IMG/VR virus record: IMGVR_UViG_3300045988_044952 | Source: a virus | Reading direction: 5' to 3' (one strand) | Length of the DNA: 47,112 nt | Part shown: piece by piece, positions 1,425 through 47,112 of the stretch | How the letters are laid out: each line of letters opens with the position of its first letter | Position numbering within the stretch: the stretch's first letter is position 1 | Translations under genes and position numbers: made by a program | The notes under the pieces: generated by a model | What the model was told of the DNA's origin: nothing | The model's input: only the letters and a program-made list of their open reading frames with translations | Database searches by the model: none

Positions 1425-1536
1425 TTCCCGCCTGCTGGTGATATAATCAAAATTGCAGACGGTATTGTTGTATCTGGTATGACATATCTTTGCACGCCCC
1501 GGAAGTGTTCCCAGCACGACCGGGGCATTTTGTTTA

Positions 1537-2376
1537 TTAGTCTTTCAGAATGTCGTCTGTAAAGGCTGTTATTTTCTGACTTACAAAAGAAGAATAGTTT
1601 TCTAAATCCTGTTTAGGGTTATCACCTTGCAGCATGACAAATTCAGATAAAGCAACAATCTGATTTTGTACGTCAATCAAGGCTTGACCGTAGTATGAAA
1701 CGTCTGGACCGAAGCCAACGGAAGAAACCTGCTCATAATGCCACGCAGCACGCTTCTTTAAATCCACCAGAACAGGAACGGACGCTTTTTGCAGCTGGGA
1801 AACGGTATTTGCGTCGGAGTGTACCAGCTGCCCCCAGCGTGTCAGCTGTTCTTCCGTGATGTATCGTGGGTCTTCCGGGTGTCGCTTTATGTGTATAAAG
1901 TTATACAGACAGAAGATACCGAACAGGGCGGCAACAACTGAAAAAATAACATGAGAAGAAGCAAAGAGGAACACGGCACCAGCCAGAGCAACGACGCCGA
2001 ACACAACAAAGCTGGCGTCTGGTCTTTCCTGCAAAACTGCCGTGGTCTTTGGCGGCTTCTCTTTTGGCTGCGCAGCTGCTTTCTGAACTTTAGCAGGAGC
2101 AGGAGCGGCAGCAGGAGAGGAAGCAGAGGAACTGGCGGCGGCAGCAGTGGAAGAAACACGGCTGCTGACTGTCTTTTTCTTTTTGCTTTTCAAATTCTCG
2201 GTCTTAACGTAAGAAACACCAGTGCCGGGAACCCCTATGCTGGTTGTGACCCTGCCGCTGCTGTTTATACTTTTACGATACCCCTTGACGCCTGCACTTA
2301 TACCAACGCTTTTCTTGCTGATGTTAAGACGGACGCCGGGGGCAATTTTCACGCTTTTTCTGAAACGTAAACCCAT
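1537..2376 (-). CDS. DUF4236-like membrane protein (lysogeny-module gene, function unknown)
   Basis: The N-terminus MGLRFRKSVKIAPGVRLNISKKSVGISAG resembles the DUF4236 signature. It has an Ala/Ser/Pro-rich linker and a long hydrophobic segment (FVVFGVVALAGAVFLFASSHVIFSVVAALFGIFCLY). RBS AAAGGTGG. Confidence 0.6.
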   Translation of the reverse strand: MGLRFRKSVKIAPGVRLNISKKSVGISAGVKGYRKSINSSGRVTTSIGVPGTGVSYVKTENLKSKKKKTVSSRVSSTAAAASSSASSPAAAPAPAKVQKAAAQPKEKPPKTTAVLQERPDASFVVFGVVALAGAVFLFASSHVIFSVVAALFGIFCLYNFIHIKRHPEDPRYITEEQLTRWGQLVHSDANTVSQLQKASVPVLVDLKKRAAWHYEQVSSVGFGPDVSYYGQALIDVQNQIVALSEFVMLQGDNPKQDLENYSSFVSQKITAFTDDILKD

Positions 2377-2613
2377 ATAAAACCACCTTTCTTGCGAATA
2401 TCCACAAAAACATAGAAATTATAATAGTGAGTGCGCCCAGCCTTGCCACGCCGGAAAGGTGGTCACACATGATAAAAAAATATATACACTGGTATGATTG
2501 CAGAGTGTACGCAATCTATTACAGCAGCATAAACACTATTTATTATAATTTAGATTTCAATGGAGCAACGCAACTTATAATTTGTAAATAGCGGGGGGAC
2601 GCTGGGTGCGTTA

Positions 2614-3078
2614 TCACCCGGCGTCTGTCCCGGAAACACTGCCAGTGTCAACGGGCGGGCACTGGGCTTCTAAATCTTCTGGATTGTCTGGAACTAACAA
2701 TGCAGGGTCCGCAGTAACAGCAGCAACAAGCCTGCGTTTGAAAAATTCCACGGCAGTTCTTCTAATTTCTGGGTCAAGTTCAAAGTACGTCTTTATGATT
2801 TCCAATTCAAGACCCGTGGCACCTTTAGACTTCACGAAGTCGTCAAGGCTGAATGTGTCCGGCTGTATATACATTTCACCAGAACCAGTGCGCAACCATT
2901 CTTCATTCACATTATAAAGAAGACAGATTGCCTTGATTGTCTGGTCAGTGACGGTTGAGCCGTCCCGTTCCATGTAGCTGACGCCAGTTTGCTTCATTCC
3001 CAGACTTACTGCAAATTCAGTCTGGCTGATGTGCAAAACATCTTTTCTAAAATGCTTCACACGTTCATTGATAGTCAT
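2614..3078 (-). CDS. XRE-family HTH repressor (cI-like)
   Basis: The N-terminal HTH_XRE pattern (ISQTEFAVSLGMKQTGVSYMERDGSTVTDQTIKAICLLYNV) is followed by a C-terminal extension. The gene is divergent from the rightward early operon and shares an operator-rich intergenic region with it. Confidence 0.85.
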   Translation of the reverse strand: MTINERVKHFRKDVLHISQTEFAVSLGMKQTGVSYMERDGSTVTDQTIKAICLLYNVNEEWLRTGSGEMYIQPDTFSLDDFVKSKGATGLELEIIKTYFELDPEIRRTAVEFFKRRLVAAVTADPALLVPDNPEDLEAQCPPVDTGSVSGTDAG

Positions 3079-3108
3079 TTGACTTCACCGCCTTTCTTTT
3101 ATGTTTAA

Positions 3109-3211
3109 AGAATAGCAGTAACCGCTAAAAAAGTCAATATTAAAAACGGAAAAAGGGTTGACAAATAGCAGTAACCGCTATAATATATAGTTAAACAAGC
3201 AGTAACCGCTA
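3109..3211. promoter_or_regulatory. Divergent immunity promoters with three copies of operator AGCAGTAACCGCTA
   Basis: Operators lie at 3114-3127, 3167-3180 and 3198-3211. The core matches its own reverse complement at 10 of 13 positions. Rightward promoter: TTGACA 3158-3163, then TATAAT 3179-3184 (15-nt spacer) or TAATAT 3181-3186 (17 nt). Leftward promoter (minus strand): TTGACT (3132-3137), 17 nt, TATTCT (3109-3114). Each spacer holds one operator. Confidence 0.65.
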
Positions 3212-3266
3212 CAACAGAAGCGTTTACCGCTTGCGAAACCACACAGCATGAAAGGAGGAACAGACC

Positions 3267-3446
3267 ATGACAGAAGTTAAAAACATGGAAACCATGATTG
3301 CAACTGAAAACCAGCAGGAAGCAACAGAGGTCATGGCTTTTCTGGGGGAACTTGAACCGCAGGAAAAGAAAGACTTTCTGGTGTTCATGCAGGGCATAAG
3401 ATTTGCAAAGGGCATGGCACAGAAAATTGCGCCGCAGTCCGTATAA
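3267..3446 (+). CDS. Small early protein, 59 aa (below the ORF-track cutoff)
   Basis: ATG 3267 is preceded by GAAAGGAGGAA, with stop TAA at 3444-3446. Translation: MTEVKNMETMIATENQQEATEVMAFLGELEPQEKKDFLVFMQGIRFAKGMAQKIAPQSV. First gene after the rightward promoter. No HTH recognised. Confidence 0.55.
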   Translation: MTEVKNMETMIATENQQEATEVMAFLGELEPQEKKDFLVFMQGIRFAKGMAQKIAPQSV

Positions 3447-3460
3447 AGGAGGGCGCAGGA

Positions 3461-3598
3461 ATGGAAGTACAAGGAACATTCAATGCCCAGCGCTTTTTTG
3501 AAACGCTGGCGCTGATTATATCCCAGCGGGAGGGCGTGAAAGTCACCGTGACAGTGACACAGCCAGAGCCGGAGAAGAAAGAAAAGCAGTCAGCGTGA
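3461..3598 (+). CDS. Small early protein, 45 aa (below the ORF-track cutoff)
   Basis: ATG 3461 is preceded by AAAGGAGGG, with stop TGA at 3596-3598. Translation: MEVQGTFNAQRFFETLALIISQREGVKVTVTVTQPEPEKKEKQSA. Confidence 0.5.
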   Translation: MEVQGTFNAQRFFETLALIISQREGVKVTVTVTQPEPEKKEKQSA

Positions 3599-3618
3599 GC
3601 GCCGGGCAGCAGCAGAAA

Positions 3619-3641
3619 CAAAGGTTTTTCAAAAGTCAATA
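3619..3641 (+). repeat. Left 23-nt direct repeat flanking the second DGR target cassette
   Basis: CAAAGGTTTTTCAAAAGTCAATA matches 4958-4980 (CAAAGGCTTTTCAAAAGTCAATA) at 22 of 23 positions. Confidence 0.8.
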
Positions 3642-3706: not shown

Positions 3707-4729
3707 ATGAAAGAATTTGTGAAGAAAAAAGCAGTCATTGTCATGGACAGTGCAGGACTGCCAAACTACATGACCATGTTTTATATGGAGCCGGGGACCT
3801 ATGAGCCGGAGGACGTGCCGGAACTGTTCAAAATCAGAAACAAGATTGTTCCTGCGGTTCTGGTGTCGCAGTTCACCAACACCATGATTAAGGGCGTCCC
3901 GGCGTCCTTACCTTACCAGCAGCCAAAACACACTATCAGTTATGATGAAGCGGCGGCAGCCTGCGGAAGAAAAGGCAAGGGCTGGCACCTTATGACAAAT
4001 ACAGAGTTTGTCTATCTACTGCATGAAGCAGAGGAACTGGGGCACACAATCGGCGGTAATACAAACTACGGCAGCAACTCAAAGAATGAGCAGGAAAGCG
4101 GCGTGAGATACGACAGCGCCGGACGCACGCTGACCGGGTGCGACCCCCTCACATGGTCCCATGACGGAACAGCAGACGGCGTGTTTGGTCTTTGCGGTAA
4201 TTTCTGGGAATGGGTCACGGGCTTGCGTCTGCACAAAGGCGTTGTGGAATACACGCCGAACAACGACGCAGCAGTTGAGGGCTACACAGAGAAGCCAGAC
4301 TGGACCGTTGCAGAGGTGAACGGCAGACCGTTGAAGCTGTACGGCAACAGTGCTGGTGATGTGGTAATGTCCGTTGCGGAAGAAATCGAAGAAAACTGGG
4401 AGGGCTGCCACATGGCAGACTTGCAGCTGGAAGAACTGGAAGAAATGCCAGAAATTGCGTACAAGCTGGGAATTGTACCGCATGACTGGAAGAACGAAAC
4501 AGCCGGAATATGGGCAGACAACGAACTTGAAGAAGCCGTGCCTCTCCGGGGTTCGAGTGTCAACTACTCTTCCGATGGTGGTGCTGGTGCGCTGGGCTTG
4601 GGCTACCCTCGTTCTTTCGTCTGCAACGTTGTGTCGTTCCGTTCCGCTTTATTCTTGGAAAGCTGGGAACTGGTAACTGATTTACTGAAAGCGGGTGCGG
4701 AAGCACACGCAGGAGCGAAGGACGAATGA
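3707..4729 (+). CDS. DGR variable protein 2 (C-type-lectin/FGE-sulfatase-like fold), remote target
   Basis: 340 aa. Full-length paralog of 37433-38485, sharing the motifs RKG.GWHL, GNTN, TW.HDGT and LCGN.WEWV. The C-terminal segment 4535-4649 is a VR copy of the TR at 39085-39199. Confidence 0.9.
   Translation: MKEFVKKKAVIVMDSAGLPNYMTMFYMEPGTYEPEDVPELFKIRNKIVPAVLVSQFTNTMIKGVPASLPYQQPKHTISYDEAAAACGRKGKGWHLMTNTEFVYLLHEAEELGHTIGGNTNYGSNSKNEQESGVRYDSAGRTLTGCDPLTWSHDGTADGVFGLCGNFWEWVTGLRLHKGVVEYTPNNDAAVEGYTEKPDWTVAEVNGRPLKLYGNSAGDVVMSVAEEIEENWEGCHMADLQLEELEEMPEIAYKLGIVPHDWKNETAGIWADNELEEAVPLRGSSVNYSSDGGAGALGLGYPRSFVCNVVSFRSALFLESWELVTDLLKAGAEAHAGAKDE
4535..4649 (+). repeat. DGR variable repeat 2 (VR2)
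   Basis: 115 nt align without gaps to TR 39085-39199. There are 16 differences: 15 at TR adenines and one T-to-G (TR 39109 / VR 4559). Confidence 0.9.
4691..4710 (+). other. GC-rich hairpin 42 nt downstream of VR2 (inside the coding sequence)
   Basis: GCGGGTGC-GGAA-GCACACGC. The stem pairs at 7 of 8 positions and the loop is 4 nt. A counterpart lies at 38512-38533 downstream of VR1. Confidence 0.55.
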
Positions 4730-4911
4730 GCGCAGATAATTTCCCATACGTCGAGGGACAGCCAGCGGAAATCTATTTTGACGGTAAATGGCACCGGGGC
4801 AAGATAATTGCCGGGTACAGATTTAGGGACGGAATAGTGACCATACAGACGGAAGATGGGCAGAAAATCGGGTGCGGTGAGAGCCGCAAAGAGTTATACA
4901 GAGCATTGTAA
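4726..4911 (+). CDS. Small protein, 61 aa, translationally coupled to DGR target 2
   Basis: ATGA start/stop overlap with 3707-4729. Beta-rich sequence (EIYFDGKWHRGKIIAGYRFRDGIVTIQTEDGQKIG). No family recognised. Confidence 0.55.
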   Translation: MSADNFPYVEGQPAEIYFDGKWHRGKIIAGYRFRDGIVTIQTEDGQKIGCGESRKELYRAL

Positions 4912-4923
4912 AAATGGCAAGCA

Positions 4924-4968
4924 AAAAGCCTTTGAAGCTGTGCCGGAAACACAAAATCAAAGGCTTTT
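4924..4968 (+). terminator. Stem-loop downstream of the target-2 cassette
   Basis: AAAAGCCTTTGA (4924-4935) pairs with TCAAAGGCTTTT (4957-4968): a 12-bp stem with a 21-nt loop. The A/T tracts are part of the stem. Confidence 0.4.
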
Positions 4969-4980
4969 CAAAAGTCAATA
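4958..4980 (+). repeat. Right 23-nt direct repeat flanking the second DGR target cassette
   Basis: Matches 3619-3641 at 22 of 23 positions. Overlaps the 3' arm of the 4924-4968 stem-loop. Confidence 0.8.
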
Positions 4981-5243
4981 TGTTAATAATTCAATACACG
5001 TTTATTATACCATATTGGCGGCTACAAGTCAAACATTTTAGAGGGCGAAAGCCTTTGAAAATAGCGGGTTTCAAACCTGTTAAACGGGCTTGTATGGGGT
5101 ATTAACATTCCTACGAAATATATAAATATATATACGCTGTATGGATAATGAACAGGAGGGATAAGAGTGAGAAGAAGAACCCCACCCCACTTCTGGTATA
5201 CCCTTATACGCTTAAAACGGTATAGGACAGAAAAGGAAGTGCA

Positions 5244-6182
5244 GTGGTGTTCATAAGGGAGAAGAAGATAGACTGCGCAGAGTATAGAGAAGTGGATATA
5301 ATACCACGAACAGAAGCAGCAGAGCAGGCAAGCAGAGGAAAGAGGGGTAAGAAAAGAAAGGTTAATGCCCCAAAGCAAAAGGACTTGAACGACAAGAACG
5401 CTAAACGCTATCTGGTACAGTTGGGAAATGGCAACTTCCACATAGGGGACCTGCATACAAGTTGCACATATAGCGCAGAGAACCTGCCGGGAACGGTAGA
5501 GGAAGCAGAAAACATTGTGACAAACTACCTGCGGAGAATAGCATACCGCAGAAAGAAGCTGGGGTTAGAACCCCTTAAATACATACTGGTAACAGAATAC
5601 AAGTACAGCAAGGATGGTCAGTGTCTTAAAAGAATACATCACCATATCATTATGAACGGCGGTTTAGACCGTGACGACGTGGAATTGATGTGGACGAAAG
5701 ACCGTATCAACTGGAAGAAGACAGACGACCCAGAGTATAGAGCCAGTATAAAGCAGCTGGGCTGGGTTAATGCAGACCGCCTGCAAATGAATGAGAACGG
5801 CATAGAGGGGCTTTGCAAGTATATTGTGAAAGACCCGCAGGGAAAGAAACGCTATTCAAGCAGCAGGAACCTTGACCGCCCGGAAACAACCAGAGAGGAC
5901 GGAGGGGAAAAGCGGCAGCGTGACCAGAACCACTGGAAGTATAGCCGCAATCTGTCAGACCCAACGGAAAAGTGCAATGATTTCAAGTACAGCAAACGCA
6001 AGGTAGAGCAGCTGGCGAAGTCACCAGACGGCGGGCTGGAAGAATTTAAAAAGATTTACAGTGATTATGACATTGTTTCGTGCGAACCCGTGTTTTATGA
6101 ACAAACCGGGTGGCATATTTACTTGAAAATGTGGAAAAAGAAGCCCAAAAAGGGCAGAAAGGAGGATAAAAAGTGCAGTTAG
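5244..6182 (+). CDS. Putative HUH-type replication initiation protein
   Basis: GTG start after AAAAGGAAG. Lys-rich N-terminus, a histidine cluster RIHHHIIMNGG (HUH-like) and a downstream tyrosine motif GLCKYIVKD (Y-x-x-K). First large gene of the early operon. Assigned from motifs only. Confidence 0.4.
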   Translation: MVFIREKKIDCAEYREVDIIPRTEAAEQASRGKRGKKRKVNAPKQKDLNDKNAKRYLVQLGNGNFHIGDLHTSCTYSAENLPGTVEEAENIVTNYLRRIAYRRKKLGLEPLKYILVTEYKYSKDGQCLKRIHHHIIMNGGLDRDDVELMWTKDRINWKKTDDPEYRASIKQLGWVNADRLQMNENGIEGLCKYIVKDPQGKKRYSSSRNLDRPETTREDGGEKRQRDQNHWKYSRNLSDPTEKCNDFKYSKRKVEQLAKSPDGGLEEFKKIYSDYDIVSCEPVFYEQTGWHIYLKMWKKKPKKGRKEDKKCS

Positions 6183-6472
6183 GTGAATTGATAGAGAAAA
6201 TGACGACCAGTGACCGTCTGGTTATCATCAACGCTGCCGGGCAGGTGATATACCGTGGCTATGCGGCAAACTTTGCACACGGGACAATAAACCCATTGCG
6301 CCGGGTGAAACGCTTTGGGCTGGATATGGAAACGTACAAGCGCACAGAAAAGATGTGGGACTGGGCAAACATACGGGAACTGCCGGAGCAGATACCAGTT
6401 GAACAGCTGGGACAATATGACATAGGGCAGCTGCAACAGCTGTTATTTATCCGGGTGATTTTGGAGGAATAA
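6173..6472 (+). CDS. Hypothetical protein
   Basis: GTG 6173 lies 7 nt after AAAGGAGG. 99 aa, no motif recognised. Confidence 0.55.
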   Translation: MQLGELIEKMTTSDRLVIINAAGQVIYRGYAANFAHGTINPLRRVKRFGLDMETYKRTEKMWDWANIRELPEQIPVEQLGQYDIGQLQQLLFIRVILEE

Positions 6473-24151: not shown

Positions 24152-24649
24152 ATGACACCAGTTTTTTTGCTGGAAAATTTGCAGCGGTTCATAGAAGAAA
24201 AAACGGCTGACATTATTTTACCAGTGAGAACCAGAACGGGCAGAAATGAAGTGAAAGAGCGCCCGGCGGCGGTCTACAAAATGGGACTGCCGGAAGCGGA
24301 CGACGCACAACAGAAAGTGCCATACATTCTGGTTAAGTTCCTAACAGGGACGGACGACAAGGCAGCGGGAGAGCCAGAAGAAGACAGCTGCAAAGTAAGA
24401 ATTATATTTGCGGTGTATTCCGAAAACGGACAGGACGGACCACTTGCACTTCTCAACCTCATGTTGAGAGTGCGAAGCGAATTGAAGAAAGCCGGAGCAG
24501 TTGGCGGCGGTCAATTTGTGCTGGAAATGCCACTGGAATATATCGTGTATCAAGACACCACGCCGCCGTATTACATGGGGGAAATGGTGACAAATTGGAG
24601 CCTGCCAGTCGTACAACGTGACGTGGCAGCAGTTCTGCAAAATTTATAA
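24152..24649 (+). CDS. Neck/tail terminator candidate (hypothetical)
   Basis: 165 aa. Assigned by position between the head and sheath genes. Confidence 0.4.
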   Translation: MTPVFLLENLQRFIEEKTADIILPVRTRTGRNEVKERPAAVYKMGLPEADDAQQKVPYILVKFLTGTDDKAAGEPEEDSCKVRIIFAVYSENGQDGPLALLNLMLRVRSELKKAGAVGGGQFVLEMPLEYIVYQDTTPPYYMGEMVTNWSLPVVQRDVAAVLQNL

Positions 24650-26503: not shown

Positions 26504-27022
26504 ATGTCTAAAGTTGATGAATTAGTAATTAACTATGCGATTTACGAAGACGCCACGGAGTATCTGGGAACAACAGAAGTGACCCTGCCGGATTTAGAGT
26601 ACATGACGGAAGAATTAAGCGGCGCAGGCATTGCGGGCAATATTGAAGAAATCATTATTGGTCACTTAAATGCCATGACAACAACTTTCAATTTCCGAAC
26701 CGTAACGGCAGCAGCGGTCAAGTTAATGGAACCCCGTGTGCATAGAATTGATTTGCGTGTGGCACAGCAGAGAATGAACCTGCGTACCAGTGCAAATGAA
26801 ATCACCGGGGTAAAGCATATTATGAAAGTGAAACCGAAGAAAACAGCACTGGGCAAGGTTGCTGCTGCGTCCACTGCTGATGTAAGCGGAGAATATGCCG
26901 TTTCATACTACGCAATGTATATGGACGGTTCAAAGGTAACGGAGATTGACCCGTTGAACTTCATTTGTATTATCAATGGCAAAGACTACTTAAAGGACGT
27001 TAGAAAAGCGTTAGGAAAGTAA
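26504..27022 (+). CDS. Tail tube protein
   Basis: 172 aa. VINYAIYEDATEYLGTTEVTLPDLEYMTEELSGAGIAGNIE matches the P2 FII-like tube pattern. Confidence 0.8.
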   Translation: MSKVDELVINYAIYEDATEYLGTTEVTLPDLEYMTEELSGAGIAGNIEEIIIGHLNAMTTTFNFRTVTAAAVKLMEPRVHRIDLRVAQQRMNLRTSANEITGVKHIMKVKPKKTALGKVAAASTADVSGEYAVSYYAMYMDGSKVTEIDPLNFICIINGKDYLKDVRKALGK

Positions 27023-30700: not shown

Positions 30701-31350
30701 TTATCACTTTTATAACTGGCGTCTTTTCCGGGAACTGGCGGCAGGCTTGGGAGGGCATAAAGTCCATTTTTTCTGGAATTTGGCAGGCTATCAAGTCAGT
30801 GTGTACGGGTGCAATTAACGGCATTATATCTGCGGTCAACACGGTTATTCGTGGATTGAACAAAGTAAAAGTGCCAGACTGGGTGCCGGGCGTAGGTGGA
30901 AAAGGTATAAACATATCTGAAATACCTATGCTGGCGAAAGGTTCAAGCAATACCCCAGATACATTCATAGCGGGCGAAGCTGGACCAGAGTTAATCACAA
31001 ACGCACCGGGGCGCACGGTGTTTACTGCCAGCCAGACAAGAAGTATCATGGCGGCACAGAATACGGCAGCCACAACAGCGGCAGCGGTAGCGCCAACAAC
31101 AGCACCGACCACAACAGCGCAGACGGTAAATAATTACAATACAGCGCCGGAGGTGACAGCAGGAGCAGGCAACAACGGCGGCGGTGCAAAGAATGTAACT
31201 ATCAACAATAATCCAACAATCGTGGTAAACGGAGATAAGCCGGAAGACTTAGACGCAAAGCTGGAAGAAAACAACAAACGGCTGCTGCGTGACGTTGAAG
31301 AATTGCTGGACGAAAAAGAAGACAAAGAAAGGCGGCAGAAATATGACTAA
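27706..31350 (+). CDS. Tail tape measure protein
   Basis: 1214 aa. TTG start after GGGAGGTGAAACAGC. Coiled-coil N-terminus, a TP901-type core (LSNQTGIAASAVADDVYNAISAGQ) and Gly/Ala/Ile-rich hydrophobic repeats. Confidence 0.9.
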   Translation: MAGSQKEFELLFKLKAALGPNFNGAFKSAINTNNQLRDSMKNVNSLQSKIDGYTKQSAAIDKNKERLALLNAEHDRLQQELQQTGEPTDALRKKLERNESQIQQTTAKIQEQERQLNSYAEELREAGVNTDNLEEANGRLQKSYEKLQSSQQTLQKINEKQQQVQQSISKTKGQLLGTIGAIGAIATAVYAGPVQAAQKYETAIAKVGTIADTQEVPLGTLSQQIMQLSNQTGIAASAVADDVYNAISAGQKTADAVNFVTNSTKLAKAGFAESSQTLDVLTTVLNAYGMSADKVGTVSDMLVQTQNKGKVTVGELASSMGKIIPTANASNVSLEQLCAGYAIMTSKGIAAAETTTYMNSMLNELSKSGSTTDKLLREKMGGSFSELMKSGKSLGEILGGIQDEASKSGLALSDMFSSSEAGKAAMSLLSNGVDGFNASVQDMVNSVGATDSAFAKMEDTTEAKMEKAKNSIANLSIVLGQNLLPIVGNMADKVATVVTKVSEFAAANPKLVQTVLKVAAGLAALKVGMLTTKLVTLSAEDGILSLAKKLVGLRAGFIENAATSAGFAAKLKAAGSGVLSYFGNVKGALGGVGSAIGNIFSGNRVIGAVTGFMGNVKASVVNGFMGLATKAGGALTGAGTKLLGLLLKPFSLVGGKLGPILGTVGTAIANSPLGKIGGLITRGITGAFSKATTLIAPLGNAVKTVLGPLGNLAKTALGPLGGIAGKILPVVGAITTIITVIKLVQTHLEEIRSFIQRTFGDEALAVFDKIVAVITNVENTIKNVFSGENIGAARDKIQELFGDKGAAVFDTFVNVLGTVKNAVSEVVGFITANVVPVAEQVLQVITTQVIPGIVSFIQAAAPTIMQIIQSVADFIGAIIPVIGSFIAGLMPIISEIITFISTYVLPIISELFSFICSTVLPAISDAIQAILPVVQNVLQTLLPAIQTALSTIWNIVSPIIQGILAAVQFVMPTIQAIVQSGVQAISGVISGIVTVLNGIITFITGVFSGNWRQAWEGIKSIFSGIWQAIKSVCTGAINGIISAVNTVIRGLNKVKVPDWVPGVGGKGINISEIPMLAKGSSNTPDTFIAGEAGPELITNAPGRTVFTASQTRSIMAAQNTAATTAAAVAPTTAPTTTAQTVNNYNTAPEVTAGAGNNGGGAKNVTINNNPTIVVNGDKPEDLDAKLEENNKRLLRDVEELLDEKEDKERRQKYD

Positions 31351-31558
31351 AAGCTACACCACAATATCTGGGGATATGTGGGACAAAATCGCATACAACG
31401 AAATGGGAAGCGTTCTGCATACAGATAAGCTGATGAAAGCCAATGTCAAATATGCCAGCACCTACGTTTTCCCAGCCGGGGTTGTTTTAACAATCCCGGA
31501 GGTGGAAGACGAAGAAGACTTGGAACTGCCACCGTGGAAAAGGGGGCTGCTGACATAG
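31343..31558 (+). CDS. Tail protein X (LysM-like, P2 gpX family)
   Basis: Start moved to ATG 31343. Translation starts MTKSYTTISGDMWDKIAYNEMGS...VLTIPEV. Confidence 0.7.
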   Translation: MTKSYTTISGDMWDKIAYNEMGSVLHTDKLMKANVKYASTYVFPAGVVLTIPEVEDEEDLELPPWKRGLLT

Positions 31559-31559
31559 A

Positions 31560-32858
31560 ATGAGTGCAAAGAACTTGGCACGCCGGGTGGAATTGAAACT
31601 GAAATTTGAAAATGTTTCTGTCCCGGCAGACATCAACAAATATTTAAGCAGCCTTACTTTCACTGATGAAGAAGAAGACAACGCAGACGATTTGCAGCTT
31701 GCGTTTGATGATAGAGAAAGTAAGTGGCTGGGAAGCTGGCTGGAAGTAAAACCGACATTTGTTAAGACTTCAACGACGGTACAAAAGCAGGTGGAAGCTG
31801 CAAGCGTCGTCAATTATGTAGTTAAAAAAGGTGATACCCTTTGGGCTATTGCCAAAAAGTATCTGGGAAGCGGCACGAAATACCCGCAGATTGCCAGTGA
31901 AAACAATATCAAGAACCCCAATTTGATATATCCGGGGCAGGTATTTAAAATCACGACAGGCGGGACAGCAACCCAGACGGTTTCAGAAACAAAAGAAACC
32001 ACAAAAAAGGTGTCAGACCCTAAATTGATAACGGCAACTATTGTGCAGAAAAACTGGCATGACAACGGAAAAGATGTGCATTTGAATTGCGGAACCTTTG
32101 AACTGGACAGCGTAGACGCCAGCGGACCGCCAACCAAAATCACATTAAAAGGCACGTCAATTCCGTACACCTCAACCATGAGGGTTGCGAGAAAGTCAAA
32201 AGCATGGGAAAACACGACACTGAAAGTGATTGCGGAGCAGATAGCGAAAGAAAGCCGTTTAAAACTGATGTACCTTGCTGGGTCAAACCCGAAATATAAG
32301 CGAAAAGAACAGGTGCAGCAGTCAGACATTGTATTTTTGCAGAAGCTATGCAAGGCGGCTGGGCTGGCGTTGAAAGTAACCACAATGAACGTGGTTATTT
32401 ATGACGCCGAAGAATACGACAGCAAGCCACCTATAAAAACCATAAAATATGGCAGCGGTGATTATTTGTCATACAAGCTGGGAACCAGCCTGCATGATAC
32501 AGCATACACCAGCTGCCATGTTTCGTATACTGACCCGGACAGCAAGGAAACGATAGAAAGTACATACACCCCGGACAGTACAGAGGGAACCGGGCAGGTG
32601 CTTGAAATCAACGAAAAGGTGAACAGCACCAGTGAAGCGCACGAACTGGCGAAAAAGCGGCTGCGTGAAAAGAATACACAGCAGTATACAGCCAGTTTCA
32701 CCATGCTTGGTGACGTGCAGCTGGTGGCGGGCGCAACGGTTCGGTTGAAAGGGTTTCAGAAGTTCGACCGCAAGTATAAAATCACGAAAGCAACGCACAA
32801 GCTGACGGGAGGTTATACAACGCAAATTGAATTAAAACAGGTATTGGAGGGCTACTAA
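31560..32858 (+). CDS. Late control D-like baseplate hub protein with an inserted LysM domain
   Basis: The LysM segment is VVKKGDTLWAIAKKYLGSGTKYPQIASENNIKNPNLIYPGQVFKI. The C-terminus FDRKYKITKATHKLTGGYTTQIEL is gpD-like. Confidence 0.75.
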   Translation: MSAKNLARRVELKLKFENVSVPADINKYLSSLTFTDEEEDNADDLQLAFDDRESKWLGSWLEVKPTFVKTSTTVQKQVEAASVVNYVVKKGDTLWAIAKKYLGSGTKYPQIASENNIKNPNLIYPGQVFKITTGGTATQTVSETKETTKKVSDPKLITATIVQKNWHDNGKDVHLNCGTFELDSVDASGPPTKITLKGTSIPYTSTMRVARKSKAWENTTLKVIAEQIAKESRLKLMYLAGSNPKYKRKEQVQQSDIVFLQKLCKAAGLALKVTTMNVVIYDAEEYDSKPPIKTIKYGSGDYLSYKLGTSLHDTAYTSCHVSYTDPDSKETIESTYTPDSTEGTGQVLEINEKVNSTSEAHELAKKRLREKNTQQYTASFTMLGDVQLVAGATVRLKGFQKFDRKYKITKATHKLTGGYTTQIELKQVLEGY

Positions 32859-33209
32859 ATGGCAGACATGACAGAACTTAAAAACGCCATACGCATTGGC
32901 ACGGTGCAAAGTGTGAGTGCGGAAAAAATGACAGCCCGTGTGAAGTTCAAGGACAAAGGCGGCATAACTTCCGGCGACCTGCACATTATCAAACGCCCGG
33001 TGTACGTCATACCAGCAATGGAAAGCGGAACAGAGGGGCAGACAGCAAAAACAGAATTGCAATATGACTACGGCGGCGAACTGAAAAAGAAAGTGAGCCA
33101 CTACCACGAAGCCTTTGTTTCTGCATGGGTGCCGGACGTCAACGACATGGTTCTTTGTATTATGCTTCCAGACGGTGACGGTGACGGCTTCATTGTGGGG
33201 GAGGTGTAA
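32859..33209 (+). CDS. Baseplate spike/assembly protein V-like
   Basis: 116 aa. IRIGTVQSVSAEKMTARVKFKD fits an OB-fold gpV N-terminal pattern. Confidence 0.6.
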   Translation: MADMTELKNAIRIGTVQSVSAEKMTARVKFKDKGGITSGDLHIIKRPVYVIPAMESGTEGQTAKTELQYDYGGELKKKVSHYHEAFVSAWVPDVNDMVLCIMLPDGDGDGFIVGEV

Positions 33210-33620: not shown

Positions 33621-33950
33621 ATGGACGTAATAAGAGGTGACGGCTCATTGCTGAAAGAAATTGACCTTGCGCCAGCAAATGAACATCAAGCCGTAATACA
33701 GAATGTTGCAGTTATTCTGGACACAGTGCAAGGGTCATGCCCCATGTTCCGTGACTTTGGATTGCCGGGCAGCTTATATGGCAGACCGCAGCCAGTAGTT
33801 GAAAGTATACTGGTTGGCTATCTGTATGACCAGATAGAACAATTTGAACCACGAGCGGTGGTTTCAGACATTACATTTGACCACGACGCAGGAACAGGGC
33901 GTACAGTTCCTATAATCTATTTGGAGGAGGTGAGAACAGACAATGAGTGA
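33621..33950 (+). CDS. Baseplate wedge protein (gpW/gp25-like)
   Basis: 109 aa. GSCPMFRDFGLPGSLYGRP...LYDQIEQFEPRAVV. Confidence 0.7.
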   Translation: MDVIRGDGSLLKEIDLAPANEHQAVIQNVAVILDTVQGSCPMFRDFGLPGSLYGRPQPVVESILVGYLYDQIEQFEPRAVVSDITFDHDAGTGRTVPIIYLEEVRTDNE

Positions 33951-35085
33951 CAGAAAATACCCAGACATTGAGTTTGTGGAAACAGACACAGAAACGATAG
34001 AAAGCAATCTGATTGCACTATATGAAAACATGGTGCAGCAGGTGCCGGGGCGTGAGCATTACAAAGTTTACCCGGCGTCACCAGAAAGGCTGTTTATTTC
34101 ATGGGTGGCAAATATCATTGTGCAGCAGCGTGTCATTATCAACGAAACTGCAAAAAAGAACGTGCCACGCTATGCGGACGGTGAATACTTGGACAGTCTG
34201 GCAGAACTGTTCAAGGATTTGGAAAGGCTGCCAGCAAGTCCGGCGTCTGCAATGTTCCGCTTCTACATATCGCAGGCGCAGACACAATCAGTAATTATCC
34301 CGGCGGGCACAAGAATTTCCTTTGACGGCGCAATATTGTTCGAAACGAAAGAAATTCTTGAAATCAAAGCCGGGCAGACATACGGGGACGTTGAGGGCGT
34401 CTGCACAACAGCTGGGACAGTTGGAAACAATCTGGCAGCAGGGCAGGTCAAAGAAATTGTGGACCTATACGACTACTACCAGAAAGCAGAGAATATCACA
34501 GCAACCAGCGGCGGTGCAGAGGAAGAAGACGACGACAGTTATTATGAGCGTATGCGGGAGAGTATGGAGAGTTTCAGCACAGCAGGTCCCGTAAATGGTT
34601 ATATTTACTTCACAAAGTCGGTGTCCCCAGCAGTTGCAGACGTGGCGGTGACAAGCCCGGAACCTTGCGTGGTAGACGTCCGGGTGCTTTTACAGAATGG
34701 AGCGCAGGCAACGGAAGCGGTACTGAAAGAGATTGAAACAGCGTTGAACGCTTCTGACGTCCGACCATTGACAGACACCGTGACCGTATCGGTGCCGGAA
34801 ACAGTGCCGTTTGACATTGATGTGACCTTTTATATTCCACAGCCAGACGCAGCCAGCGCAACGATTATTGAAGCGGCAGCACGGCAGGCGGTAGAAGATT
34901 ACAAGACGTGGCAAACAAGCAAAATGGGGCGGGACATTAACCCGTCATACCTTACGGCACGACTAATGGAAGCAGGCGTGAAACGTGTCGAAGTTCGCAA
35001 GCCTGTTTTCACGGTGGTTGAAGACATAAAGGTTGCAAAGTTGGGAAACACAACGGTTCTGAATGGAGGTATTGAGAATGTCTAA
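33943..35085 (+). CDS. Baseplate J-like protein
   Basis: 380 aa, in the position and with the pattern of the Baseplate_J family (PASPERLFISWVANIIVQQRVIINETAK). Confidence 0.8.
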   Translation: MSDRKYPDIEFVETDTETIESNLIALYENMVQQVPGREHYKVYPASPERLFISWVANIIVQQRVIINETAKKNVPRYADGEYLDSLAELFKDLERLPASPASAMFRFYISQAQTQSVIIPAGTRISFDGAILFETKEILEIKAGQTYGDVEGVCTTAGTVGNNLAAGQVKEIVDLYDYYQKAENITATSGGAEEEDDDSYYERMRESMESFSTAGPVNGYIYFTKSVSPAVADVAVTSPEPCVVDVRVLLQNGAQATEAVLKEIETALNASDVRPLTDTVTVSVPETVPFDIDVTFYIPQPDAASATIIEAAARQAVEDYKTWQTSKMGRDINPSYLTARLMEAGVKRVEVRKPVFTVVEDIKVAKLGNTTVLNGGIENV

Positions 35086-36079
35086 AACAATTTACAATGC
35101 CGACTATTCAGAATGTTTGCCGGAAGCATTAAAGAAAGACCCTAAAATGGTTGCACTGGCAAACGCCACGGCAGCAGCACTTCTGGACACTTCCGGGATA
35201 ATGAACAGCGTTTTGATATATTCCCGGTTTGACGAACTGCCGGAAGAACTGGTGGACATTCTGGCGTATGACCTGCACGTTGACTGGTACGACTATAACT
35301 ACCCACTGGAAGCAAAACGGGACTTAGTGAAAAACAGCGTCAAGGTTCACAAAAAAATGGGGACAAAGTACGCCATTGAAACAGCACTGGGCAGCCTATT
35401 TCCAGAAAGTGAAGTGGAAGAATGGTTCCAGTATGAGGGAGAACCCGGACACTTTCACATTATTTTAGATGTAACAAACCAGAAAATCACGGCAGACTAT
35501 GCAGCTATTATCCGGGCGGTAAAGATGTATAAAAGGCTGTCAGCGCACATGGACGAACTGACATATCAAGGGCAGGTCCACGGGGTAATATACACCCACG
35601 GTGAATATTTCAGATATAAAACACCGCTGACAGGCAGACTGAAAGCCGGAACGCACCCGCAGAGGAACACAAGGGGCAGTATCGGTGCCGGAACATTCGT
35701 TGTGGGGACAGAAGCAGCCGGGTTCATATTCAACGCCCCAGCAGCAGGTACAAAACCGTACAGAAACACGATATTTGCCAATCAGACAACGCATATTGAC
35801 GCAGAAACGGCGTTAAATGCGTTTGGGTATACAAATACACCAGCCGGACGCATAAGAGCCGGAGAAAGCCCGCAGAGGAACACCAGAGGGCAGACGGACG
35901 GGGCAGCGGTCACAATGGGCGACACAGCGGAAGCATACCACTTCACAACCCCAGCAGCCGGGACCGTCCCGGAAAGAAGCACGGTGCAGGGGACAGAGGG
36001 CGGCACCGTGGGCAGCAGTACGCAGGCAATGGGGTATTCATACGGCGTCAAGCCGTGCGGAAGCACCCGGAAGCTATAA
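35078..36079 (+). CDS. Tail protein I-like (baseplate/fibre attachment)
   Basis: Start moved to ATG 35078 (MSKTIY). LPEELVDILAYDLHVDWYD...AKRDLVKNSVKVHKKMGTKYAIE is gpI/DUF2313-like. Confidence 0.7.
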   Translation: MSKTIYNADYSECLPEALKKDPKMVALANATAAALLDTSGIMNSVLIYSRFDELPEELVDILAYDLHVDWYDYNYPLEAKRDLVKNSVKVHKKMGTKYAIETALGSLFPESEVEEWFQYEGEPGHFHIILDVTNQKITADYAAIIRAVKMYKRLSAHMDELTYQGQVHGVIYTHGEYFRYKTPLTGRLKAGTHPQRNTRGSIGAGTFVVGTEAAGFIFNAPAAGTKPYRNTIFANQTTHIDAETALNAFGYTNTPAGRIRAGESPQRNTRGQTDGAAVTMGDTAEAYHFTTPAAGTVPERSTVQGTEGGTVGSSTQAMGYSYGVKPCGSTRKL

Positions 36080-37432: not shown

Positions 37433-38485
37433 ATGTCTAATTTTGATGATTTAAGCATGGCGGTTGCTTCCTTTGGTGGAAACAACGCTGTAAAGTTTGA
37501 TGATTTGGGTATGCCGTCAATTATGGTGGCTATTCCGAAAATGAAGTATTCCGACATTATCACCGGGGGCACACAGGAAACTTTGCCGTGGTGGATTGTG
37601 GACGGCGTAGAGAAAGAAGCTATCTGGGTTTCAAAGTACATCAATACCGTGGTGAATGACCGTGCGTATTCACTGCCAATGAAAGACCCGAAAGCCTATA
37701 TTGATTTTGACACGGCGCTTGCGGTATGCCGCAGAAAAGGTGAGGGCTGGCACCTCAACCAGAACGGCGTCTTTGCTGCAATCAATCTTTGGTGTATGAA
37801 AAACGGCTTCACGCCCCGTGGTAACACAAACTGGGATAGAAGCTATGAAAAAGCCTATGAAAAGGGTATCAATACATACATTGACGGTTCACATGGCGGC
37901 GGAAGAACTGCAACGGGTTCTGGTCCTGTAACTTGGTATCACGACGGCACCCCGGCGGGCATTGCTGACCTTTGCGGCAACTGCTGGGAGTGGGTTTCTG
38001 GTATGCGCTGCGTAAATGGTGAAATCCAGATTATTCCATACGGCAACAGCATGAAGTCTGATTGCAATATGGGCGCAGCAAGTACGGAGTGGAAAGCAAT
38101 CATGCCAAACGGCACGCTTGTTGAACCGGGAACCGCCGGAACCTTAAAGATTGACAGAACCAGTGCTAGTGACGCTACGCTGCGTATCAATACAGCGGTA
38201 ACAACCCAGACAACCGACAGCAACGACACCAGCACACCTTTTAAAGATGTAAAGGCAGTAAGCGGCGTAAGTATTCCGCAGATTTTAATTGCAGCCGGAT
38301 TGTTCCCAGACAGTGCCCAGACAACGCCGGGCAGATTTTGGGCGAGAAATAACGGCGAAAGGCTGCCTATCCGGGGTTCGAGTTTCTACCACACTTCCGG
38401 TGGTGGTGCTGGTGCGCTGGGCTTGTACTACCCTCGTTCTTTCGTCGGCGGCAATGTGTCGTTCCGTTCCGCTTTATATGAGTAA
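37433..38485 (+). CDS. DGR variable protein 1 (C-type-lectin/FGE-sulfatase-like fold), probable receptor-binding tail protein
   Basis: 350 aa, last gene of the tail-fibre module. Motifs RKGEGWHL, GNTNW and LCGNCWEWV. The C-terminal 37 codons (38364-38474) are VR1. Confidence 0.9.
   Translation: MSNFDDLSMAVASFGGNNAVKFDDLGMPSIMVAIPKMKYSDIITGGTQETLPWWIVDGVEKEAIWVSKYINTVVNDRAYSLPMKDPKAYIDFDTALAVCRRKGEGWHLNQNGVFAAINLWCMKNGFTPRGNTNWDRSYEKAYEKGINTYIDGSHGGGRTATGSGPVTWYHDGTPAGIADLCGNCWEWVSGMRCVNGEIQIIPYGNSMKSDCNMGAASTEWKAIMPNGTLVEPGTAGTLKIDRTSASDATLRINTAVTTQTTDSNDTSTPFKDVKAVSGVSIPQILIAAGLFPDSAQTTPGRFWARNNGERLPIRGSSFYHTSGGGAGALGLYYPRSFVGGNVSFRSALYE
38364..38474 (+). repeat. DGR variable repeat 1 (VR1)
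   Basis: 111 nt align without gaps to TR 39089-39199. All 14 differences lie at TR adenines. Confidence 0.9.
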
Positions 38486-38511
38486 CTGGAAACTGGGAAC
38501 TGATACACTGC

Positions 38512-38540
38512 GGGGCTTGCGGCAGCAAGCCCCCTATTTT
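38512..38540 (+). terminator. GC hairpin (4-nt loop) plus T-tract, 38 nt downstream of VR1
   Basis: GGGGCTTGC-GGCA-GCAAGCCCC (38512-38533) followed by CTATTTT. It could serve both as a terminator and as a DGR target-recognition hairpin. Confidence 0.55.
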
Positions 38541-38647
38541 GAAACTAAATAACAAAGGTGGTTTAAGGAGAAATGCCAGAAAATACAACAGAACAGCTTC
38601 CGCAACTGGACAACGTGCGGGATAACGCAACGCAGGAAGATTTCAAA

Positions 38648-39031
38648 ATGAAAAACAAGGTTTATGAAATGCTGCTGTATGCGTACCCGGCGTTAGAACA
38701 GTTTCCGAAAGCTGACAGAAAACTTGCTGACCATATCCGGGAAGCAATATTGCAGGTGTTTGAATTGGTGATACACCTTGAAAACAAACACTATAAGAAA
38801 ACGACGCTGGGAGAACTTGACGACCAGCTGGACGTTTTGCGGCACCTTGTAAGACTGGCGGCAGACCAGCAGTTGCACCCAGACAAGAAACCATGCCTGC
38901 CCATGCGCAAGTATGAAATATTGTCACGAAAGATAAATGAAATAGGGTGCATGATTGGCGGGTATTATAAATCACTGAACGGCAGCACGGCTGGAAACGG
39001 CGGTGCTGCAAATAAAAGCAATGGTAAATAG
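38648..39031 (+). CDS. avd: Accessory variability determinant (Avd-like four-helix-bundle protein)
   Basis: Start moved to ATG 38648 (127 aa). MKNKVYEMLLYAYPALEQFPKADRKLADHIREAILQVFELVIHLENKHYK matches the Avd / 23S-rRNA-IVS-protein family pattern. Sits between the target and the TR. Confidence 0.8.
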   Translation: MKNKVYEMLLYAYPALEQFPKADRKLADHIREAILQVFELVIHLENKHYKKTTLGELDDQLDVLRHLVRLAADQQLHPDKKPCLPMRKYEILSRKINEIGCMIGGYYKSLNGSTAGNGGAANKSNGK

Positions 39032-39084
39032 CAGGGTAACACCTGCTTTTTATATTATGGGAATAAGCCGTTAATAGAGGACTT

Positions 39085-39199
39085 GCCGTGCCTATCCGGG
39101 GTTCGAGTTTCAACAACACTTCCAATGGTGGTGCTGGTGCGCTGAACTTGAACAACCCTCGTTCTAACGTCAACAACAATGTGTCGTTCCGTTCCGCTT
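39085..39199 (+). repeat. DGR template repeat (TR)
   Basis: 115 nt with 23 adenines, 20 of them in 8 AAC and 2 AAT codons in the VR reading frame. Matches VR1 and VR2 except at adenines, plus one T in VR2. The track ORF 39088-39303 is this repeat, not a gene. Confidence 0.9.
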
Positions 39200-39460
39200 C
39201 ACCCCATTTCTGCCAGCAGTCGTGTTCACAAGTGGGCACGTCCAGTGCGTATGGGTTAAAGGGGTTTATTTCCATTCCAAAGGCTGCCAGCCGGGAGCCG
39301 TAGGAAAAATATTGAATTGCCGTAAAGATAGTTAGTAAGCCGCAGGCTGAAAGTCAGAGCTGGAAACACTGGCACTGAATGTATATATCACGTTTGGGCT
39401 GCGGAAGAACCGCAGTTTGATTTGTACGGCGAAATTTTAACAACAGGAGGGAAAAGGGAA

Positions 39461-40675
39461 TTGCACAAAATCAAAAACATTTTCCCTATAATTTATGACT
39501 TTGAAAATCTCTTCAATGCGTATAAAGCCGGGATAAAGTGCAAGAGGTACAGACCAGATGTGATGGCGTACACGGATAAGCTGGAAGAAAACTTGATTGA
39601 ATTACAGAATGAATTTATCTGGCAGACCTACACCGTGGGGCGCTACAACATATTTTATGTTTACGAACCGAAAAAGCGCATGATTATGTCATTGCAATTC
39701 AAAGACCGGGTGGCACAGCACGCTATATATAGCCAGCTGAACCCGTATTTTGAAAAGCAGTTCATACATGACAGCTACGCTTGCAGAGTAGGCAAGGGAA
39801 CACACAAAGCAGTCAACCGCCTGCATAACTGGTTGAAGCAGACAGACCGGAAGCCGCAGCGTTTCTATTATTTGAAACTGGATATTGCAAAGTATTTTTA
39901 CCGGATAGACCATGAAGTATTGATGGACATTTTGCGGAAAAAGATTGCTGATAAAGATTTGTTGCACGTCTTGTCAGTAATTATAAACTGCGAAGACACA
40001 AACTTTGGTCTGCCGCTGGGCGCAGATATTGGCGACGTGGCGTTTGATGAATTGCTGGGAGAAGTTGGGCTGCCTATTGGCAATCTGACTTCACAAATGT
40101 TTGCAAATTTGTATTTGAATGAACTTGACCAGTTCTGCAAACACAAATTGCACCTGCGTTATTACATACGTTACATGGACGACATTATAATTTTGCACCC
40201 AGATAAAAAGTATCTGGAAAAGATAAAGAACAAAATTGCGGACTTTCTGGAAAAAGAACTGCGGTTGCAGCTTAACAAGAAAACCTGCATAAGACCAACC
40301 AGCATGGGCATTGAGTTTGTAGGGTTCCGCATTTGGTCAACGCACATAAAATTGCGCAAGAAGACGGCAAAGAAGCTGAAACGTAGATTGAAATATATGT
40401 TTGCAGCATATCACGCAGGAGAGATTGACAAAGATACACTGGATAGGTCCGTTGCTTCATACCGGGGCATATTACAGCATTTCAACAGCTACGGTATGCG
40501 CCAGAGCCTAAACGAACTGTACTTGCAGGAAATGGGCAAGCCATATCCAGAGCCGGAGAAGAAGCCAGCAAGTAAATGCGGTATATTCTGCGGATATTAC
40601 GGCAGCGCTGATGATTATATCAAGCAGCCAGAAGAAAAGGAGGTGACGGACAGTGGAAGCAATGCAGACGCTTAA
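39461..40675 (+). CDS. DGR reverse transcriptase
   Basis: Contains LPIGNLTSQMFANLYLNELD (the DGR-type I/LGxxxSQ motif) and YIRYMDDIIIL (YxDD). There is no in-frame ATG near the N-terminus, so the start is TTG 39461 (10 nt after AGGAGG) or TTG 39422. Confidence 0.9.
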   Translation: MHKIKNIFPIIYDFENLFNAYKAGIKCKRYRPDVMAYTDKLEENLIELQNEFIWQTYTVGRYNIFYVYEPKKRMIMSLQFKDRVAQHAIYSQLNPYFEKQFIHDSYACRVGKGTHKAVNRLHNWLKQTDRKPQRFYYLKLDIAKYFYRIDHEVLMDILRKKIADKDLLHVLSVIINCEDTNFGLPLGADIGDVAFDELLGEVGLPIGNLTSQMFANLYLNELDQFCKHKLHLRYYIRYMDDIIILHPDKKYLEKIKNKIADFLEKELRLQLNKKTCIRPTSMGIEFVGFRIWSTHIKLRKKTAKKLKRRLKYMFAAYHAGEIDKDTLDRSVASYRGILQHFNSYGMRQSLNELYLQEMGKPYPEPEKKPASKCGIFCGYYGSADDYIKQPEEKEVTDSGSNADA

Positions 40676-46991: not shown

Positions 46992-47037
46992 TTGTACTAA
47001 CTTAACACTGCCCACGGGTAGTGTCACATTAGTACAA
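46992..47037. other. Candidate attP: 46-bp imperfect dyad next to the serine integrase stop codon
   Basis: TTGTACTAACTTAACACTGCCCA | CGGGTAGTGTCACATTAGTACAA. The arms match in 18 of 23 positions as inverted repeats, with perfect 9-bp outer arms TTGTACTAA/TTAGTACAA. The right arm (= positions 2-24) ends 2 nt from the int stop codon (27-29). Confidence 0.4.
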
Positions 47038-47112
47038 CACTACCCAAAAACAACACCCGTGATATTCTGGTCATTATCAATTCTAATTTCTTTAATGACA
47101 GAACGCCAAAGC
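47014..47112. repeat. Right copy of the 99-nt exact terminal direct repeat
   Basis: Identical to 1-99. It contains a second partial copy of the integrase C-terminal coding sequence. Confidence 0.95.

Follow-up and report, generated by a model that had tools for sequence, protein, structure and literature searches.

The window analyzed here, the IMG/VR virus record IMGVR_UViG_3300045988_044952 at its full length of 47,112 nucleotides (nt), comes from a temperate gut phage that carries a diversity-generating retroelement (DGR). Its open reading frame (ORF) 3707–4729 (+), which we call T2 and which encodes 340 amino acids (aa), very probably serves the phage's single DGR as a second, non-adjacent target that is functional. 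The variable repeat (VR) that it contains, VR2 (4535–4649, +), is, as judged from comparison of related genomes, a live DGR target and no relic. T2 is found after the immunity switch and before the replication initiator, not in the tail/baseplate module, where the adjacent target T1 (37433–38485, +; 350 aa; recognized by paralogy and by its match to phrog_2889) comes after the baseplate genes (33943–36079).

The DGR machinery of the window is complete, and a single copy of each component was identified. The template repeat (TR; 39085–39199, +), 115 nt in length with 23 adenines, is located between the gene for the accessory protein Avd (38573–39031, +; PF22296 bAvd, E = 4e-21; NF033474 DivGenRetAVD, 93.8 bits against a cutoff of 80) and that for the DGR reverse transcriptase (RT; 39422–40675, +; RVT_1, E = 3e-23), in which both the I/LGxxxSQ-type motif IGNLTSQ and the YxDD-type motif YMDD were found. 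In keeping with the classic AAC design, none of the 23 TR adenines falls at a third codon position. VR2 aligns with the TR over 115 nt without gaps, and 15 of the 16 differences are at TR adenines (hypergeometric P, 3e-12, for at least 15 of 16 differences on 23 of 115 sites), the sole other one being a T>G change at TR position 25. The initial annotation, made from the sequence of the window, had reported the same alignment and had quoted the peptides encoded by VR1 and VR2; both were reproduced. Chance similarity of VR2 to the TR was considered and rejected (P about 3e-12). In the VR of T1 (VR1, 38360–38474, +, with TR homology beginning at 38364), all 14 differences from the TR are at adenines, and the 5′ limit of TR homology is 4 nt further in than at VR2. 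The proposed mechanism is the usual one for both repeats: TR RNA would be copied by the RT/Avd complex (38573–40675) with adenine-specific errors, and the resulting cDNA would replace VR2 as well as VR1.

Evidence that VR2 is still being rewritten was obtained from 13 related genomes, each with TR, VR1, and VR2 on one contig. Within these genomes VR2 differed from its own TR at 7 to 15 adenine sites and at 0 to 2 other sites. The TRs themselves showed 3 to 14 non-adenine changes relative to the window TR, and each of these was mirrored in VR1 and VR2, which indicates repeated overwriting from the TR and is not a pattern that decay would predict. Every TR of the set had kept all 23 adenines, pointing to a one-way flow of information. 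An alignment of 45 T2 orthologs, all with an intact ORF, gave a column entropy of 1.56 bits for the TR-adenine columns, compared with 0.12 for the remaining VR columns and 0.28 for the gene outside the VR. Several gene pairs had 0 differences in 908 non-VR positions and 10 to 18 within the VR, nearly all at adenine columns. Outside the VR, entropy at third codon positions was 2.5 to 3 times that at positions 1 and 2, which indicates purifying selection on T2. At 90% identity, the protein cluster of T2 contains 8,624 distinct sequences and that of T1 16,255.

These data bear directly on whether VR2 is instead the decaying remnant of an old duplication, no longer used as a DGR substrate, as the lone non-adenine mismatch in the window VR2 might be taken to indicate. 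The initial annotation had likewise raised the possibility of an invariant, dead repeat, and the outcome was decisive, with VR2 varying in the 13 genomes and the 45 orthologs. Such decay is contradicted already by the 10 to 18 VR-site differences between T2 genes that are otherwise identical, by the presence of each lineage's non-adenine TR changes in VR2 in 13 of 13 genomes, by the unbroken ORF and purifying selection across the 45 orthologs, and by the conservation of the 3′ cis-elements, including a hairpin that covaries (see below). We regard it as extremely improbable. As a separate observation, the T2 orthologs of contigs L007 and L008 (related contigs are designated by L numbers) are identical outside the VR and show 20 VR differences, 4 of them at non-adenine columns, a pattern expected of a single T2 gene on which two TR alleles have acted, as might happen when phages recombine.

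With three 115-nt repeats per genome, VR2 could in principle also owe its likeness to the TR not to retrohoming but to exchange with VR1 or the TR, through ordinary homologous recombination or gene conversion. Against this, VR1 and VR2 depart from the TR at adenines only, and they do so independently of each other: the two repeats, alike in substitution load and spectrum, agreed at 9.1 of 23 sites within the same genome and at 8.6 of 23 between genomes (P = 0.28). Information flows one way, the TR retaining its 23 adenines in every genome, and the homology of both VRs to the TR stops sharply at one common 3′ base, beyond which the TR flank (CACCCC...) is unlike the VR flanks. There is in our opinion hardly any likelihood that gene conversion accounts for the data. 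The same comparison led us to reject a convergence of VR1 and VR2 within a genome, which would have suggested a shared ligand.

The VR flanks share two elements at their 3′ side. Spaced ACTG repeats are common to the VR1 and VR2 flanks and are not present after the TR. At VR2 they form the motif GCTGGGAACTGGTAACTGATTTACTG (4662–4687, +), a candidate IMH (initiation of mutagenic homing)-like, VR-specific element, and the ACTG units were invariant in 20 diverse VR2 flanks. This motif is followed by a GC-rich hairpin or cruciform, GCGGGTGC-GGAA-GCACACGC (4691–4710, +), whose 8-bp stem contains one internal mismatch and whose loop, GGAA, is of the GRNA type. At VR1 the corresponding elements (38484–38533, +) are the ACTG repeats AACTGGAAACTGGGAACTGATACACTG (38484–38510) and the hairpin GGGGCTTGC-GGCA-GCAAGCCCC (38512–38533). 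Covariation of the VR2 stem was tested on 20 distinct flanks from divergent lineages: 89% of cells were paired, versus at most 52% when the 3′ partner was slid by 1 to 3 columns, compensatory changes were seen in 5 of the 8 pairs, and none of 500 shuffles reached the observed values. In the phage BPP-1 a target-recognition hairpin, found also in other phage DGRs, has been demonstrated experimentally; it has a 7- to 10-bp GC-rich stem and a GRNA loop, and the structure of the stem matters, not its sequence (Guo et al. 2011, PMC3240598). In its letters and predicted pairing, the VR2 hairpin matches this structure. We propose that each VR would be marked in cis by one 3′ signature, an ACTG-repeat motif and then an 8- to 9-bp GC-rich hairpin with a 4-nt GRNA loop, the role of these elements being inferred from the BPP-1 precedent.

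Both VR2 elements are inside the coding sequence of T2, where they encode a conserved protein tail, ...ESWELVTDLLKAGAEAHA, that AlphaFold models as an extra helix (residues 320–335). At VR1 the elements are located past the T1 stop codon, with a T-rich run behind them, and probably double as a terminator. On the template side, a conserved stem-loop, CGTGTTCA-CAAG-TGGGCACG, is found at 39221–39240, 22 nt 3′ of the TR. Its stem pairs appear by eye to covary among related TR flanks (e.g., CACAAGCA-CAAG-TGCTTGTG), and it is probably part of the spacer structure of the DGR RNA.

At the protein level, T2 and T1 are 36% identical over 288 aa (BLASTP, E = 7e-45), and both match phrog_2889, an unnamed PHROGs family. 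The family profile matches the structure of TaqVP (PDB 5VF4; E = 2e-67). An AlphaFold2 (AF2) model of T2 was obtained with a predicted local distance difference test score (pLDDT) of 85 and a predicted template modeling score (pTM) of 0.88, and Foldseek aligned it to 5vf4 with a TM score of 0.77 (E = 1e-24); the AF2 model of T1 had a pLDDT of 80.6. According to these models, T2 is a soluble, single-domain, TaqVP-like C-type-lectin (CLec) binder of the formylglycine-generating enzyme (FGE) type, the variable residues (VR2 covers residues 277–314 of 340) forming its predicted ligand-binding face. The initial annotation had described T2 as a full-length paralog of T1 and had suggested a comparison of the two structures. 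The paralogy and the shared CLec scaffold were borne out, the full-length likeness only in part: T2 is without the helix formed by residues 5–12 of T1, whose motif NFDDLALAVASFGG is strongly conserved in T1 orthologs; an acidic insert takes the place of the beta-rich insert of T1; and the extra C-terminal helix encoded by the DGR cis-elements is added. The isoelectric points are 4.7 for T2 and 6.1 for T1. The N terminus of T2 is not a signal peptide, residues 5–13 being confidently modeled as a strand of the fold, and a secreted or surface role of T2 was considered and rejected on the same ground. In a Pfam scan neither T2 nor T1 had a match at E ≤ 0.01, the FGE-sulfatase family PF03781 included, and NCBIfam gave none either. 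PF03781 is matched by some orthologs, by the targets of phage Lagaffe (see below), and by the L224 protein; the Pfam model is too distant for the two window sequences.

The surroundings of T2 are those of an early module. Upstream are an HTH_3 repressor (2614–3078, −; domain match), an operator region with divergent promoter-like sites (3111–3211) containing three copies of AATAGCAGTAACCGCTA at 3111, 3164, and 3195, a promoter-like site (3158–3186, +; consensus match), and two small early ORFs from the ORF list, of 59 aa (3267–3446, +) and 45 aa (3461–3598, +). Downstream are orf61, an optional 61-aa ORF (4726–4911, +) that overlaps the T2 stop codon (ATGA) and occurs in only part of the relatives, and the replication initiator Rep (5244–6182, +; PF23343, phrog_3584). 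This is the context that the initial annotation had outlined, and its placement of a second target of the same TR outside the structural operons, at the head of the early rightward block, holds. No plus-strand terminator-like site was seen before T2 and no plus-strand promoter-like site directly upstream of it. T2 would be expressed along with the early genes, from the rightward promoter that the repressor controls. The strongest promoter-like match of the region (TTGACT-17-TATAAT with an upstream TG, 11/12) is on the minus strand at 5004–5032; it faces left, antisense to orf61 and the 3′ end of T2, and is adjoined by a terminator-like inverted repeat (4924–4968).

This position is kept among relatives. 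In L004, L016, L022, and L024 the immunity region 1517–3447 (DUF4236 gene, repressor, and first small ORF) is replaced as a block, with repressor homologs only about 34% identical across the swapped blocks versus 80 to 96% identity on the integrase and T2/Rep sides. Such a replacement is a typical immunity-module swap; homology resumes at 3447 in the swapped relatives, and T2 keeps its place. In a Rep-anchored survey of 57 loci with enough upstream sequence, T2 was directly upstream of Rep in 44, with a gap of 330 to 518 nt, and where Rep was at least 88% identical it was there in all but one locus. The 45-aa ORF is conserved beside T2 and was also found in relatives without T2.

Other observations concern the slot that T2 occupies. 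A 29-nt direct repeat (core CAAAGG(T/C)TTTTCAAAAGTCAATA) flanks T2, together with orf61 where present, and occurs within the window only at 3613–3641 (+; left copy) and 4952–4980 (+; right copy). In L221 (2773–3744), L449 (1401–2370), and L450 the repeat-flanked slot holds a 271-aa DUF6273 protein in place of T2. Of the differences between the L221 and L449 copies of this gene, 17 are concentrated in a 53-nt C-terminal patch, where codon positions 1 or 2 account for 16; the remaining 763 nt hold 26, most of which are third-position changes. From this clustering of variation at codon positions 1 and 2, the patch looks like another DGR variable repeat, and the gene (in L221, on contig 3300010270_000007) like a putative DGR target. 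In a distant lineage a T2-like gene of 40% identity is located 1.6 kb downstream of Rep (L224, 6559–7557; L226, 4071–5069). Its VRs differ between these near-identical contigs, and it carries ACTG repeats and a GGAA-loop hairpin as at VR2. T2-like genes are near a Rep gene in L377 and L064 too.

As for the genome as a whole, positions 1–99 are repeated exactly at 47014–47112, so the window represents a 47,013-bp circle; contigs L004, L016, and L024 run unbroken over the circular junction. Homology to the window starts at position 1 in a Hominiventricola filiformis genome and in long viral contigs, and to the left of this position in integrated relatives is an interrupted ABC-transporter ATPase gene (L019, about 6130–6295). 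The window was therefore linearized at the attachment site, beside a large serine recombinase gene (integrase; 27–1517, −), position 1 being the prophage-host junction in integrated relatives. The 99-bp terminal repeat fits an assembly graph broken at the attachment site, with excised and integrated forms both in the sample. The hosts are Lachnospiraceae.

Second targets of this kind are already known, because non-adjacent targets were catalogued in 2018 and phages Lagaffe and Lelie have been published with two VRs. Wu et al. 2018 (PMC5758913) reported “many examples” of “non-adjacent” phage DGR targets within single prophages, less than 50 kb from the RT. VR2 fits this class, as it is in the same prophage, off the RT/TR cassette, with no other DGR identified in the window, and as in that work one adjacent and one non-adjacent target have differing 5′ homology boundaries. 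The term “remote” in the initial annotation was in this respect an overstatement, given this class and the two Lagaffe targets (PMC11792537). The distances it gave were right (TR to VR2, 34.4 kb in prophage order and 12.35 kb round the circle). Unlike the present analysis, that of Wu et al. is a catalogue and does not analyze the module holding the non-adjacent target. Nothing on second targets was found in Benler et al. 2018, and the survey of Roux et al. 2021 could not detect targets away from the RT.

A close published parallel is in Faecalibacterium prophages, where a second VR was described in Lagaffe_CP, Lelie, and CP11 (PMC11792537, 2024). Both VRs of Lagaffe_CP and CP11 vary among cognate genomes; the function of the target pair was called “even more intriguing,” and the two paralogous TaqVP/Mtd-like targets of Lagaffe are viewed there as both acting in host recognition. 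Lagaffe (MG711461) resembles the window in having one TR and two paralogous FGE-type CLec targets, one of them beside Avd/RT after the baseplate genes. Its second VR (32602–32706) is likewise in the early block, about 9.5 kb from the TR, in a gene that comes after the integrase and HTH (helix-turn-helix) genes and before the exonuclease, Gam, Erf, and SSB genes. The two VRs have 13 and 11 differences from the TR, at adenines only. Lagaffe differs from the window in its replication/recombination module and its IS30-type integrase. Its proteins are only about 31% identical to T2, and unlike in T2 the second VR is internal and followed by an acidic helical extension of about 115 aa. Within 30796–33060 of Lagaffe, the gene just upstream of the second target has an LPD15 (large polyvalent-protein-associated) domain. 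LPD15 is a domain of polyvalent proteins of phage-host conflict, and this neighbor offers no more than a hint as to the role of such second targets. A term search of PMC11792537 indicated that the early location and the cis-elements are apparently undiscussed in that paper.

The genome architecture of the window recurs in Saumur (ON453901), a prophage that can be induced in Enterocloster clostridioformis YL32. Its T2 ortholog, WAK79604 (63% identity), is directly upstream of the replication initiator, and 15 of the 16 mismatches between TR and VR2 are at adenines; unlike in the window, other genes are found upstream of T2, including a PAPS-reductase-like gene. WAK79604 is annotated only as “hypothetical protein,” and PMC10197239, which names Saumur, contains no mention of a DGR. 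In Lelie (PP479942, L451) we found a TR with two VRs (intervals 24484–24610, 26513–26639, and 40451–40554), one VR being in orf31 beside the RT. The second VR (40451–40554), with 15 of 17 mismatches at adenines, belongs to orf58, which encodes a small DUF6273 protein in the early plus-strand block about 16 kb from the TR; the layout is that of the window, and the target family differs. Two-target DGRs with DUF6273/C-lec targets are also known from the nd4/nd12 phages (PMC10743442), where both targets are described within the DGR cassette.

Two further variable proteins can be compared with T2. TaqVP, the variable protein of a Thermus aquaticus prophage DGR, is homologous to T2 over almost its full length, with about 26% identity; it is monomeric, with a single-domain FGE-type CLec fold and a C-terminal VR, to which T2 adds a C-terminal helix. 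BPP-1 Mtd, unlike T2, is a trimeric three-domain tail-fiber tip protein and the single target of its DGR. BPP-1 shares with the window the mutagenesis of TR adenines and a GC-rich 8-bp hairpin with a GRNA loop 3′ of the VR (PMC3240598). Its IMH is GC-rich and partly homologous to the TR, whereas in the window the TR-VR homology ends abruptly and is followed by the ACTG-repeat motif, and the recognition elements at the window's VR2, in contrast to those of BPP-1, are coding. To what was known the present analysis adds that the early-module place of the second target recurs across lineages and two target families, that recognition elements can be coding, and that T2 differs from T1 in a family-specific manner.

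As to what T2 does, we incline, without great confidence, to a role outside the virion, because T2 is without the N-terminal helix of T1, is acidic, and has no signal peptide; the lack of correlation between VR1 and VR2 contents within a genome speaks for this as well. T2 could act early in the cytoplasm, binding a variable molecule of the host or of a rival element, or could be a lectin released at lysis. The competing view, to which we give a smaller though appreciable share of likelihood, is that T2 is an alternative or auxiliary receptor-binding protein in virions. In that case its gene would be a tail gene out of its place, through which the search for receptors is widened or doubled. Consistent with that view, its structural neighbors in BFVD are mostly annotated as tail (collar) fiber proteins. 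It is harder to reconcile with a place at the head of the early operon that is kept across immunity swaps and several phage lineages with no structural gene nearby, with the missing N-terminal helix of T1 orthologs and the different, acidic insert, with VR1 and VR2 contents that do not correlate, or with the small size of the second targets in Lelie (215 aa) and L221 (271 aa), in which only a DUF6273 domain is recognized. A literature search found no virion proteome or transcriptome for Saumur, Lagaffe, or Shimadzu.

Several points tell against the overall reading of T2 as a functional second DGR target that is expressed early and may act outside the virion. T2 is a paralog of the tail-module protein T1 and shares with it the CLec binding face and the TR, and host recognition by both copies is the view given for Lagaffe in PMC11792537. 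The timing and location of T2 are predicted from gene order alone, and the promoter and terminator scans gave nothing beyond matches to a consensus. T2 itself goes unrecognized by Pfam and NCBIfam. With regard to the cis-elements, the VR2 hairpin is 41 nt past the end of the TR-VR homology, compared with a published range of 4 to 34 bp for phage DGRs, and the ACTG-repeat motif, which does not resemble the BPP-1 IMH, is a candidate IMH inferred from its letters, without experimental precedent.

Returning to a role outside the virion, a broader proposal can be put forward tentatively: early-gene second DGR targets might constitute a recurrent class of soluble, non-virion hypervariable binders made at the start of infection or induction. 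The class may comprise T2, its orthologs in Saumur and other Lachnospiraceae prophages, the second target of Lagaffe, and orf58 of Lelie, and the DUF6273 protein found in the slot of L221 and L449 is probably a further member. On the same tentative reading, such a binder would be antibody-like and no receptor-binding protein, being directed against a fast-changing intracellular or competitor molecule, such as a host defense protein or a component of a rival phage. If this is true, the slot bounded by the 23-nt repeats (3619–3641 and 4958–4980) would be an exchange site for such cassettes.

Overall, the window provides a clean, testable case and no new mechanism. That recognition elements of DGR targets can sit in coding sequence, shaping a conserved protein tail, is useful for the finding of non-adjacent targets and for DGR engineering; large surveys restricted to the RT neighborhood miss such targets (Roux et al. 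2021). In phages, DGR targets are mostly taken to be receptor-binding proteins of the tail. In the window an actively rewritten paralog heads the early operon, in a place that is kept in several phage lineages and by two target domain families, which makes it a testable question whether phages use targeted hypermutation for something beyond adsorption. Cultured lysogens are at hand in E. clostridioformis YL32 (Saumur), F. prausnitzii A2-165 (Lagaffe), and H. filiformis CLA-AA-H276.

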